Below are positions 19,184-21,531 of a stretch of 64,000 nucleotides of DNA, one piece after another. Origin of the DNA: Alphaproteobacteria bacterium. Lineage in GTDB: Bacteria > Pseudomonadota > Alphaproteobacteria > Rs-D84. The number at the start of each line of letters is the position of its first letter. Positions within the stretch are counted from its first letter, which is position 1. Under the pieces are notes generated by a model, which worked only from the letters and a program-made list of their open reading frames with translations, was not told the DNA's origin and did not search any database. The stretch is from positions 115,764 to 179,763 of the forward strand of contig JAGCVZ010000011.1 in the NCBI GenBank assembly GCA_017962125.1, written 5' to 3'. Both the position numbers and the translations under genes were made by a program.

Positions 19184-21094
19184 CTACTTTTCCGGCAAAC
19201 CAATTCTCTTCGGATTGTCTACTTTTTGCTTGATATCGACACACTCTCCCTTCTCCACACTCCACGTTTGATTACTAGCCGGGCAATTATCATCGCACTT
19301 GTTTCCTTTGGAAGATACATGGTAACCCTGCTCACAACCCGTAATCTCGCAAGAACAAGTATGTGTAGCTGCACCGACACTAGGTAAACCTTTACACAAA
19401 AGAGATCCACCGAGTACATAGGTACCTTCCTTCGCGGGGTATTGCAAATCCTCCTGAACACATGGCGTATTCAAAACTCTTTCTGGTCCAGTAATTTTTT
19501 GTTTCGGATTAATACATCCACCTTTTTCTGCATCAAAGGTTTCCCCTGTTGGACAATCTGCACACTTACACATTACGCCTTCACCATTAACATCACATAC
19601 AAGATCTCCACCATCACTAACAGATAATGTGCATTGTTTGCTCGCATCTTTGGCGCATTTACAACTCTCACTAATCCTATAATCAATCTTTTTACAATCC
19701 CCCTTTCCATCAACGCGAACCTGACCTTTGCGGCATTCCTCTTTCTTTTTTACACACCCCCCGCTGCTGTTCTTTTCAAATTGGTTCGCCTCATCACATT
19801 TGTCCGCACGACATGAGCAATTTACATTATCACCGGCACCTTCTTTGGTTTCACAACGGACCCCTAATGTCGTTTTAACACTTTCACCAACACGGATATA
19901 TGTCCCCTCTAACCAACCATATGATTTTAATTTGTTTATATCTTCTTCGATACATGCTTTACCAATAACACGACCTTTTGTCTCTTCTTGTTTTGTTGGT
20001 TCAACACATCTTTCATAATCTTTAACCACCAATTTATCTTTGCACGTTGTAACTTTACAAGAACACGGCACATGCTTTCCCTGATACAAACACTGGTAAG
20101 CCCCCGATTTTTCCCAATAAATTCCGCCCGTAGCCCCATCAGGCAAGTCTTTTTTTAAACATGGTTTTCCAATTTCACGTTCATCTTTAACTTCTGGTTG
20201 CGGACCATCTTTATCATCGCAATTTTTCATATTGACACATTTGAAACTGCTGGCACCAATTACCCTTTCGCCATTCGGCAAAAGATTTTCAACGGACTCC
20301 CATTTTCCGCCCAATGTTTGTTCACAGATTGTCCCAAGCTTTCGACAACGCTCCATTTCTTGTGGGGTAACCGCACAAGTAAATACTTTATCTTTGTCAT
20401 CACACGTCACAGTTGTTGGAAAATCCTCATCATCGTTGTTGCTTTTGCCGCAATTTGCCATAACTTTATAGTTTTTACATTCATACTTAACGAAAGCCCC
20501 ATTCTCGGTTTTTTCCATATCTTTCCCGGTTACATTTTTGCATGCTGCATTCAATTCAGCCAAAACATGTTCATACCCCGTATTCAATACGAACGTAAAT
20601 TCAACCTGATCACATCCTAATTTATATTTACCGTAATCATACTCTTCATCTATTTGCCAATCATCACTGTCAGGGCATCTCCCGTTTATTACATAAATTG
20701 CACAATCACAACAACGGTCTTTTCTTATTTTGTCACAACAATGGTTTTCTTCGTTTTCCCGTTGTTTTTGCTCTATTTGGGCATTCAATCCAGAAAGTAT
20801 CGTTTTTTGTTCATCCAATTCGCCCTTGGCTGTATCTATTTGTCCCGACAATTTATTACTCTTGACCGCTTGTGCAACATTAATGCCGACACCAACCGCC
20901 GTCAGTCCAATTGTTGATATACCCGCTATCATCCACCCCTGCTTCTTACCTTCGCATTTTTCCAACTGTGCAATTTTATCTTGTTTTTCTTGCAAGAGCC
21001 TCTGCACTTGCGGACTCATCGCTACACCGCGTGCATCGCCAATACCAACACCTAAAACCGCAAACAAACCAAAAAACGATATTATTTTTTTCAT
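19184..21094 (-). CDS. Secreted or membrane-anchored Cys-rich repeat protein (coiled-coil and glycine-zipper N-module plus 3-4 tandem ~75-aa Cys repeats)
   Basis: 636 aa; signal peptide; N-module homologous to the 141-aa upstream ORF; about 60 Cys in repeated GxRVIGKxC...CSCxxTxC...C units. Confidence 0.7.
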   Translation of the reverse strand: MKKIISFFGLFAVLGVGIGDARGVAMSPQVQRLLQEKQDKIAQLEKCEGKKQGWMIAGISTIGLTAVGVGINVAQAVKSNKLSGQIDTAKGELDEQKTILSGLNAQIEQKQRENEENHCCDKIRKDRCCDCAIYVINGRCPDSDDWQIDEEYDYGKYKLGCDQVEFTFVLNTGYEHVLAELNAACKNVTGKDMEKTENGAFVKYECKNYKVMANCGKSNNDDEDFPTTVTCDDKDKVFTCAVTPQEMERCRKLGTICEQTLGGKWESVENLLPNGERVIGASSFKCVNMKNCDDKDGPQPEVKDEREIGKPCLKKDLPDGATGGIYWEKSGAYQCLYQGKHVPCSCKVTTCKDKLVVKDYERCVEPTKQEETKGRVIGKACIEEDINKLKSYGWLEGTYIRVGESVKTTLGVRCETKEGAGDNVNCSCRADKCDEANQFEKNSSGGCVKKKEECRKGQVRVDGKGDCKKIDYRISESCKCAKDASKQCTLSVSDGGDLVCDVNGEGVMCKCADCPTGETFDAEKGGCINPKQKITGPERVLNTPCVQEDLQYPAKEGTYVLGGSLLCKGLPSVGAATHTCSCEITGCEQGYHVSSKGNKCDDNCPASNQTWSVEKGECVDIKQKVDNPKRIGLPEK

Positions 21095-21105
21095 ATCTGC
21101 TTCCT

Positions 21106-21531
21106 TTATCTTAATCCTAATTCCGCCTGAGCTGCACTCACTTGCTGTTTCGTACTATTAACATCACCCTGAACCTTTTCCAATTCCGCTTTCTTGTCTT
21201 TAATCTTACTATGTTGCACAAGTGCCGCAACACCAGTCGCCGCAACACCTACACCACCAACAACCGTTCCGGCAATCCAACCTTTCTTTTTGCGTTCACA
21301 CGCAGCAATTTGTTCATCCAACGCCTGAATATCATGACGCAGATTTTGAACAACCTCCATCTCACTCATACCTTCGGACCCAGGAACTGTATCCATCGTG
21401 CCGTAATCATAATCTGAATAATATGCACCCCCAGTCGATTCGCCAAACTGACGTTGTTTCAAGGTTGCACTAAAACCAAGGCTTGGCATAACACAACACA
21501 CAATAAAAACTTTTATTAAAATTTTATACAT
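21106..21531 (-). CDS. Coiled-coil and glycine-zipper module protein (paralog of the N-terminus of the 636-aa protein)
   Basis: 141 aa; signal peptide; CERKKKGWIAGTVVGGVGVAATGVAALV aligns with CEGKKQGWMIAGISTIGLTAVGVGINVAQAV of the downstream gene; 11-nt gap to the next start. Confidence 0.6.
   Translation of the reverse strand: MYKILIKVFIVCCVMPSLGFSATLKQRQFGESTGGAYYSDYDYGTMDTVPGSEGMSEMEVVQNLRHDIQALDEQIAACERKKKGWIAGTVVGGVGVAATGVAALVQHSKIKDKKAELEKVQGDVNSTKQQVSAAQAELGLR

Follow-up and report, generated by a model that had tools for sequence, protein, structure and literature searches.

A cassette of two paralogous exported proteins with a conserved module and variable cysteine-rich regions in Candidatus Enterousia, possibly for surface display

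We identified a family of two-gene cassettes in small alphaproteobacterial genomes of the order Rs-D84 by analysing 64,000 nucleotides (nt) of contig JAGCVZ010000011.1 (positions 115,764 to 179,763 of the forward strand; assembly GCA_017962125.1), a stretch that we refer to as the window. The cassette lies on the minus strand and consists of a short gene at 21106-21531, encoding 141 amino acids (aa), followed after an 11-nt spacer by a long gene at 19184-21094, encoding 636 aa; both open reading frames (ORFs) are exactly where the initial annotation had placed them. The two products are paralogs that have a conserved module in common, and the long protein continues into a Cys-rich region. As a family, the long proteins combine a conserved anchor module with shuffled cargo that is replaced even at the orthologous locus. 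With somewhat less than even confidence, we propose that the short and long proteins together form a helical anchor or stalk, stapled by a disulfide, on which variable binding domains are displayed; the cassette would then encode a variable adhesin or surface-display system.

A common module and variable C-terminal regions

The short and long proteins are related over a module of about 80 aa, corresponding to residues 30-110 of the long protein and 61-138 of the short one. They align by BLASTP with 30% identity across 80 aa (E 2e-5), their Smith-Waterman alignment has a z score of 8.9 and was equalled by 0 of 1000 shuffles, and the profiles of the two families align in hhalign with a probability of 96.2% (E 2.4e-9). 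The paralogy proposed in the initial annotation therefore holds, although over a shorter extent than the first ~150 aa of the long protein suggested there. The layout of the module is a helix A, one invariant Cys, a basic patch, a Gly/Ala-rich hydrophobic segment and a heptad-repeat helix B. Conserved leucine or isoleucine residues recur with a periodicity of 7 in the long helices (L82, I86, L93, L100 and I107), which supports the earlier coiled-coil description.

In the long subunit, the conserved N-module covers aa 24-118 (20741-21025, minus strand, as for all cassette features below), and AlphaFold2 (AF2) predicts helices at residues 28-50 and 82-126. It contains the invariant Cys47 (20954-20956), a GKKQ basic patch, the hydrophobic segment at aa 53-76 (20867-20938; GWMIAGISTIGLTAVGVGINVAQA) and the coiled-coil helix B. 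The short protein is laid out as a signal peptide (aa 1 to ~21), a conserved LKQRQFG / VPGxEGMSEMEVV stretch, a helix, Cys78, an RKKK patch, a hydrophobic Gly/Ala-rich segment at aa 84-106 (21214-21282; GWIAGTVVGGVGVAATGVAALVQ) whose alignment columns are invariant or nearly so, and a C-terminal coiled coil; once mature, it would have about 120 residues.

Conservation is concentrated around the hydrophobic segment. Most of aa 33-86 in the long family is conserved at >= 90%, residues I56, A57, G58, S60, T61, G63, T65, G68 and N72 are invariant in its alignment, and L33, C47, G63 and G68 are invariant across the short and long families together. The segment is nearly invariant, far beyond the need of a passive anchor. 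The motif CE(G/R)KK(Q/K)GW(M)IAG followed by a Gly-rich hydrophobic stretch, as originally described, is indeed present in both proteins. The term glycine zipper applied to it there is a loose one, since the invariant glycines are spaced GxxxxG and no Pfam glycine-zipper model matches. The module can also be duplicated internally, as indicated by the 604-aa family member P0030, in which residues 241-289 form a second partial copy (helix B and the latter half of the hydrophobic segment before it) that is 43% identical to aa 63-111 of the query (E 1.8e-5).

Beyond the module, the long proteins differ strongly, even among the 17-20 or so loci that represent the orthologous site of the window cassette. 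At this site, enolase and LptB are 88-95% identical, LptC, the OmpA-family protein and a 278-aa protein 58-83%, the short protein 48-75% and the long N-module 51-73%. The C-terminal 518 aa of the long protein are either unmatched or aligned over only 17-81% of their length. Across the 86 long proteins found by a word-indexed search, the C-terminal regions are mosaics in which the order and number of domains differ, with an AB domain in 23 members, an R unit in 28 and an M module in 18.

The window protein contains all three of these domain types. AB is a small alpha/beta domain with 4 Cys (aa 153-216; 20447-20638) that AF2 predicts with a predicted local distance difference test score (pLDDT) of 95-98; fold searches with it returned no match. 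Three related 6-Cys units follow, R1 (aa 305-365; 20000-20182; hidden Markov model (HMM) domain E 6.8e-18), R2 (aa 374-449; 19748-19975; E 1.5e-27) and R3 (aa 538-620; 19235-19483; E 4.6e-22), with pairwise z scores of 3.4-8.3, including 6.4 for R1 and 8.3 for R2 against R3. The M module (aa 454-527; 19514-19735) is situated between R2 and R3 and has only a C-terminal sub-motif in common with R3. Of the 3-4 tandem repeats first reported, three related units are thus borne out, but they are not strictly tandem, and a putative fourth partial copy at aa 268-300 was not significant. The accompanying estimate of about 60 Cys was too high, as there are 46 after the module and 47 in the whole protein. 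A search with the 6-Cys unit profile against 5.8 billion proteins returned nothing, not even family members, and is uninformative because a domain of ~70 aa cannot reach significance there. The family appears to include a number of small disulfide-rich folds that are new, and for at least one of them the prediction is confident. One divergent family member has a layout of stalk, low-complexity linker and terminal Cys knob.

Distribution and pairing of the cassette

An identical 636-aa protein is encoded on six metagenomic contigs, one of them 170 kb long. Its 86 homologs match from aa 1 to ~120 at 50-72% identity and then diverge, whereas the short family comprises 52 homologs of 131-189 aa at 36-73% identity. 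Carried out exhaustively, a profile search extended this to 834 representative clusters at E <= 1e-3, of which 465 reached E <= 1e-10. In all 116 of the 116 newly listed representatives, the module is N-terminal and is followed by a Cys-containing region. Species-representative genomes, scanned with exact peptide patterns, gave 41 loci, with 2-3 loci per metagenome-assembled genome (MAG); this number is a lower bound and is uninformative on distant hosts.

All but one of these loci (40/41) are in MAGs labelled Candidatus Enterousia, Alphaproteobacteria bacterium or uncultured proteobacterium, obtained from the rumen, omasum and faeces of cattle, goat, yak, buffalo and deer. The remaining locus, L046, is the only cassette in a MAG labelled Bacteroidales. 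Its contig (CAZEWI010000076.1, 2.8 kb) is very short, so this is probably a binning error and not evidence for the family beyond Alphaproteobacteria. Every host that could be identified is a gut alphaproteobacterium with a reduced genome, and the family, although very large, appears to be lineage-specific. Ca. Enterousia of the order Rs-D84 is a widespread, uncultured gut lineage; its genomes are smaller than 1 Mbp, without a TCA cycle, a respiratory chain or standard sugar, amino-acid or peptide transporters, and it is probably dependent on partner organisms (PMC12306168). A further genome account of this lineage is available (PMC11257099). The initial annotation had likened the architecture to eukaryote-like or effector-type proteins of intracellular bacteria. 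We found no eukaryotic-type domain and no EGF signature, and the hosts are gut-lumen MAGs with reduced genomes that are not known to be intracellular, which leaves this likeness unsupported.

The two genes travel together. A short gene is located directly upstream of the long gene on the same strand in 26 of the 34 loci with enough upstream sequence, and this pairing is kept in divergent members at unrelated chromosomal sites. In addition, the profile score of the short protein is correlated with that of the long protein in the same cassette (r = 0.84). A divergent cassette that adjoins lptD and lptFG, for example, keeps the pairing with a 19-nt gap.

The orthologous site of the window cassette is flanked on one side by genes for LptC, LptB, the 278-aa protein and an OmpA-family lipoprotein, and on the other by enolase and a 1070-aa protein. 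When neighbours were compared across different cassette sites, no gene recurred except the short paralog, and a dedicated accessory or secretion partner is therefore not evident. A second syntenic site, downstream of rpoC and a plsX-like gene, holds most of the long genes that have no adjacent short partner (L024, L027, L031, L032, L033, L038 and L040, at about position 5000 in each), which suggests that these copies either act without a short subunit or use one that is encoded at another site. At locus L047, a TraG/VirD4-type coupling protein of a type IV secretion system is encoded at 9370-10563 on the minus strand, 7 kb from a divergent 766-aa family member.

Topology and possible role of the two proteins

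The signal peptides of the family have a K/R n-region, an h-region of 12-16 residues and AxA-type cleavage sites (AYA, AHA, ADA, FGA), with signal peptidase I-type ends and without a lipobox. That of the long subunit covers aa 1 to ~23 (21026-21094), beginning MKK and ending GDARG, with cleavage predicted before the following V. Since this N-terminal region is variable in sequence and conserved in type, it can be read as a cleavable Sec signal peptide, which would place helix A and the module Cys in the periplasm. Sec export of both proteins, with classical cleavable signal peptides kept across the family, is therefore supported, as the initial annotation had supposed.

Of 83 long proteins, 76 contain exactly one Cys within the module, and the Cys47 column is conserved in 85 of 85 alignable long sequences. 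Similarly, 51 of 52 short proteins have exactly one Cys after the signal peptide. Both paralogs have this unpaired, invariant Cys at an equivalent place, five residues ahead of the hydrophobic segment, which makes it an obvious candidate for an intermolecular disulfide. In the C-terminal regions, the Cys count is even in 77 of 83 long members (p = 4e-17), CxC motifs outnumber CxxC motifs (273 vs 31), and His makes up 0.9%. Together with the six conserved Cys per unit, this points to a disulfide-rich and not a metal-binding pattern, so that the C-terminal region looks typical of disulfide-type Cys-rich proteins. The 64-kb window contains no ORFs for Dsb-like CxxC oxidoreductases, which says nothing on the rest of the genome.

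The hydrophobic segment sums to +2.4 kcal/mol on the Hessa scale in the long protein and +2.6 kcal/mol in the short one, compared with -2.9 kcal/mol for a genuine transmembrane (TM) helix in a neighbouring 68-aa protein. Taken together, the signal peptides, the Cys statistics and this marginal hydrophobicity suggest that the sequence on either side of the segment is exposed to oxidising conditions outside the cytoplasm, in which case the segment does not cross the inner membrane in the ordinary way. More probably, it re-enters the membrane or is buried in an oligomer; a less conventional option is a helix that spans the outer membrane. The module thus poses a topological puzzle: a greasy Gly-rich segment with extracytoplasmic sequence on either side, a single invariant Cys and a paralogous partner protein of its own. 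Such a combination is not accounted for by any anchor, sorting signal or toxin family described so far.

In the arrangement that we tentatively favour, both products would be exported by Sec and lose their signal peptides, and the short and long modules would associate by way of their helices and Gly-rich segments to form a hetero-oligomer, which an intermolecular disulfide between the two invariant Cys could staple. As a re-entrant tip or an oligomeric bundle, the greasy segment may hold this assembly in one of the envelope membranes. The coiled coil of the long subunit would then serve as a stalk, carrying small disulfide-rich domains in a hypervariable mosaic; these domains would most likely bind the surfaces of partner or host cells. 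With 2-3 or more cassettes per genome of < 1 Mb, the family takes up real space in small genomes, and its near-invariant anchor and fast cargo turnover make it a prime candidate for cell contact. It also offers concrete targets for metaproteomics and partner identification.

A comparable theme is known from the variant-specific surface proteins (VSPs) of Giardia and other adhesins with a conserved anchor, which likewise form multigene families with several copies per genome and shuffled, hypervariable Cys-rich ectodomains. However, Giardia VSPs have a C-terminal anchor and are dominated by CxxC, whereas the proteins described here are bacterial, have an N-terminal anchor, are dominated by CxC and come with a paralogous short partner. 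No sequence or fold relationship to VSP-type families was detected. A conserved anchor with variable Cys-rich cargo is therefore a familiar theme, but this particular anchor module, its partner and its topology are without a described counterpart. The window contains no silent or pseudogene cassettes for antigenic variation.

Several observations weigh against a surface-display role. No route across the outer membrane is evident from the C-termini of the family or from the comparison of neighbours, and the C-terminal ends fall into several unrelated classes that have no sorting signal in common. In 8 loci the long gene has no adjacent short gene, and a partner in cis is thus not required. Cys4 metal sites would likewise give an even Cys count, and the Kyte-Doolittle values of the segment (1.6-1.8) are at the TM threshold, making a stop-transfer role compatible with the sequence. 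The AF2 monomer models are poor, with a mean pLDDT of 58 for the long protein, where residues 52-79 are coil at pLDDT < 40, and of 56 for the short protein (modelled with both families in the alignment), where the hydrophobic segment is part of one continuous helix at pLDDT ~50; a hairpin and a confident TM helix are both absent from these models. Finally, we infer the localisation and the short-long complex from indirect evidence. Of the surface protein assumed at the outset, the exported, disulfide-type Cys-rich character is upheld and the location at the surface is a matter of interpretation.

No named family fits either protein, in agreement with the initial annotation. Scans of both proteins against Pfam, NCBIfam, PHROGs and PADLOC, and of 202 family members against Pfam, assigned no family; searches of PDB sequences with three profiles gave only sub-threshold coiled-coil matches or MakE, and fold searches gave no match. 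Among the sub-threshold resemblances, those to alpha-helical pore-forming toxins (alpha-PFTs) are the one lead that recurs. The XaxA model NF033928 is matched individually by 49 of 95 module sequences (profile positions ~182-262, best E 1.8e-7), NheC by 10 and NheB by 3 of the 95. The short-family profile, searched against 177,635 PDB sequences, has MakE (6W08, 6TAO) as its top match, with helix, hydrophobic head and helix aligned (E 0.056).

These matches raise the prospect of a binary alpha-helical membrane-inserting or pore-forming system, whose subunits would stay soluble until they meet a target membrane, hetero-oligomerise as in XaxAB/YaxAB or Nhe/Hbl/Mak, and use the Cys-rich region for receptor binding. 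We consider it unlikely, even though it stands up best among the alternatives. In its favour, binary toxin operons likewise consist of neighbouring paralogous genes, the segment has the marginal hydrophobicity and Gly-richness of toxin heads, extracytoplasmic flanks on both sides would suit a hairpin tip, and a pore or conduit, for instance for nutrient acquisition, might serve a host without standard transporters (PMC12306168). However, the scores are far below the curated cut-offs (22-24 bits vs 125 for XaxA NF033928, 420 for NheC NF051443 and 360 for MakE NF049873), and the PDB match reaches an E value of only 0.056. When sequences were reversed as a control, one of five reversed proteins still matched XaxA (15 bits vs 21-24 for the forward sequences) and another matched a translocon protein of the type III secretion system. 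Models of FtsL, Lpp and Rz-type spanins match at comparable levels, indicating that the signal is largely that of a coiled coil plus a hydrophobic block. After the reversed-sequence control, we downgraded homology with alpha-PFTs to resemblance.

The comparison with the ClyA superfamily (XaxAB/YaxAB, NheABC, Hbl, MakABE) leads to the same view. Like our cassette, these toxins are encoded by adjacent paralogous genes and have a Gly-containing hydrophobic segment between long helices, to whose head region the sub-threshold matches align. They differ in having a helical-bundle tail of ~250-300 aa (in proteins of ~340-400 aa), which is missing here: AF2 gives only two helices around the segment, the module has ~80 aa, the mature short protein is small, and the hydrophobic stretch of ~24 aa is shorter than the heads of these toxins. 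In addition, they carry no disulfide-rich cargo, whereas the long subunit has ~520 aa of it, and the lack of an evident secretion route across the outer membrane counts against a released toxin as well. By its sequence, the module resembles alpha-PFT heads in architecture and perhaps in mode of action, and is not a member of these families. The earlier suggestion that the Gly-rich segment could form a pore or oligomer draws some weak support from its near-invariance, its marginal hydrophobicity and these matches, whose signal is in large part architectural.

Next in probability, and again improbable, is a periplasmic envelope tether similar to Lpp or a spanin, in which the segment would lie in the periplasm-facing leaflet of either the inner or the outer membrane, the periplasm would be spanned by the coiled coils, and the Cys-rich domains would be periplasmic without external recognition. 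Rz-like i-spanins (PHROG 739/89/214) match weakly (E 0.002-0.07, including values of 0.002 and 0.02), four family members match Lpp (best E 4.9e-7), and FtsL is matched too. Rz-type i-spanins and Lpp also continue from a hydrophobic segment into a coiled coil in the periplasm. In Rz, coiled-coil dimers are linked by intermolecular disulfides, which parallels the single invariant Cys of the module. The primary locus adjoins the OmpA-family, LptC and LptB envelope genes, and a tether would accord with the absence of a detected outer-membrane export signal. Against this, the envelope-gene neighbourhood is plain synteny and is not kept at other cassette sites, and a tether can hardly explain C-terminal replacement and shuffling at the orthologous locus or several divergent cassettes per genome of < 1 Mb. 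Spanins have an N-terminal signal-anchor, an outer-membrane lipoprotein partner and a place in a phage lysis cassette, and neither they nor FtsL have a cleavable signal peptide before the segment. Here there is such a signal peptide, the partner is a paralog and not a lipoprotein, and the module is not phage-associated. An Rz-like i-spanin was rejected for these reasons, and a phage origin was rejected because 2.9 M viral contigs contained no relatives.

We place little confidence in a bolder idea, namely that the module is a new two-component device for membrane insertion, either into a foreign membrane or across the producer's own outer membrane as an alpha-helical bundle. A disulfide-stapled coiled coil with a basic patch, a fusion-peptide-like Gly-rich segment and a heptad repeat would form such a device, and this arrangement recalls both class I viral fusion proteins and the heads of alpha-PFTs. 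If true, a partner-dependent bacterium with few transporters would use it to attach to, and possibly tap, its partner cells, with the hypervariable Cys-rich domains setting partner specificity. Matches to class I viral fusion proteins themselves (paramyxovirus F0) were not significant (E 1.5-6).

Least credible is a type I inner-membrane protein with the segment as a stop-transfer TM helix and a cytoplasmic, metal-binding Cys-rich region: it is the default reading of a signal peptide with a later hydrophobic segment and could accommodate the Kyte-Doolittle values, the continuous helix modelled in the short protein and Cys4 sites, but the predominance of CxC, the scarcity of His and the 6-Cys units form a disulfide and not a zinc pattern, the segment is far from the Hessa value of the real TM helix nearby, basic residues occur on both flanks with no clear positive-inside signal, and hypervariability is unexpected in a cytoplasmic domain.

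Other candidates were rejected. Proteins with a glycine zipper (SlyB/PCP, YiaD, the Rickettsia 17-kDa antigen and VacA) likewise carry a Gly/Ala-rich, marginally hydrophobic helix in a Sec-exported protein; as in the lipoproteins of this type, the segment would not be kept as a normal inner-membrane TM helix, and oligomerisation through small-residue faces is plausible. However, their unit is a two-helix element of ~45 aa with GxxxG spacing, whereas ours is a single stretch of ~24 aa with GxxxxG and no lipobox, and the Pfam families Gly-zipper_Omp, Gly-zipper_OmpA, Gly-zipper_YMGG and Rick_17kDa_Anti matched neither protein at E <= 1 and none of the 202 family members at E <= 0.001. A glycine-zipper lipoprotein was therefore discarded. 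The KxYKxGKxW signal peptide (PF19258) scored 14 bits against a cut-off of 23.6 and matched internally, at residues 54-77, which is the wrong position; five of 116 other members also match it (best E 3e-4). EGF-like and other known Cys-rich extracellular domains found no Pfam match in the 202 members and no fold match; neither of the PROSITE patterns EGF_1 and EGF_2 is present in the 636-aa protein, and just 5 of 190 members carry EGF_2. A polymorphic toxin does not fit, as the domain scans revealed no toxin, a terminator and a convergent gene take the place of a downstream immunity gene, and the small gene is an upstream paralog of the module. Type V secretion was set aside because the family has no barrel-like C-terminus and no conserved partner but the short paralog.

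Expression signals and neighbouring genes

A promoter-like site precedes the short gene at 21561-21589 (TTTTCA, a 17-nt spacer and an extended -10 of TGaTATAAT; 10/12 consensus positions plus TG). A GAGGGAG ribosome-binding site is found at 21539-21545, 7 nt 5' of the ATG at 21531, and the long gene has its own ribosome-binding site, AGGAAG, at 21100-21105 within the 11-nt spacer. The strong bidirectional terminator noted in the initial annotation is confirmed as a perfect 13-bp hairpin at 19142-19169 (arms AAAAATCCCCGCA/TGCGGGGATTTTT) with an A-run and a T-run at its flanks. This intrinsic terminator starts 15 nt 3' of the stop codon of the long gene and is common to the long gene and the convergent 68-aa gene. 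With a promoter-like site, two ribosome-binding sites, a short spacer and a terminator, the pair looks like a self-contained bicistronic unit. The upstream intergenic region matched no known RNA family.

Between the OmpA-family gene and the cassette, we found a 47-aa ORF with a ribosome-binding site at 21706-21849 on the minus strand (MVTKNDLIKAKKGMAFRLGLERFDLVTPLRQRDVPVGGPSMGEPIQK). Its promoter at 21889-21916 agrees with the sigma-70 consensus at 12/12 positions (TTGACA, 16 nt, TATAAT), and its terminator, a hairpin with a T-run at 21646-21677, is just upstream of the promoter-like site of the cassette. This gene has no Rfam or PHROG match, and ORFs of the same type with ~50% identity are found at the same place in L006, L010, L012 and L036.

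The OmpA/Pal-family protein itself (21939-23711, minus strand) has 590 aa, a lipobox (ISVAAC) and 62-80% identity at the syntenic locus. Its N-terminal region is unusually long, with ~430 aa that include two DCPC motifs and a coiled coil before the peptidoglycan-binding domain. The 278-aa protein (23760-24596, minus strand) has a signal peptide and scattered Cys, adjoins the OmpA-family gene in 14 loci, and has no match in Pfam, NCBIfam or PHROGs.

On the other side of the cassette, the 1070-aa protein (14223-17435, minus strand) has a signal peptide, a Gly/Asn/Thr/Ser-rich repetitive region resembling a passenger, and a C-terminus ending in LSGMYRF, which is typical of outer-membrane beta-barrels. 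It looks like an autotransporter; it has no Pfam or NCBIfam match and is 44-69% identical at 15 syntenic loci. The 68-aa protein (18795-19001, plus strand) has two TM segments and belongs to the superinfection-immunity family (PF14373; PHROG 1039, E 6e-7). Its gene is in a chromosomal, non-phage context, directly after enolase and convergent to the long gene.

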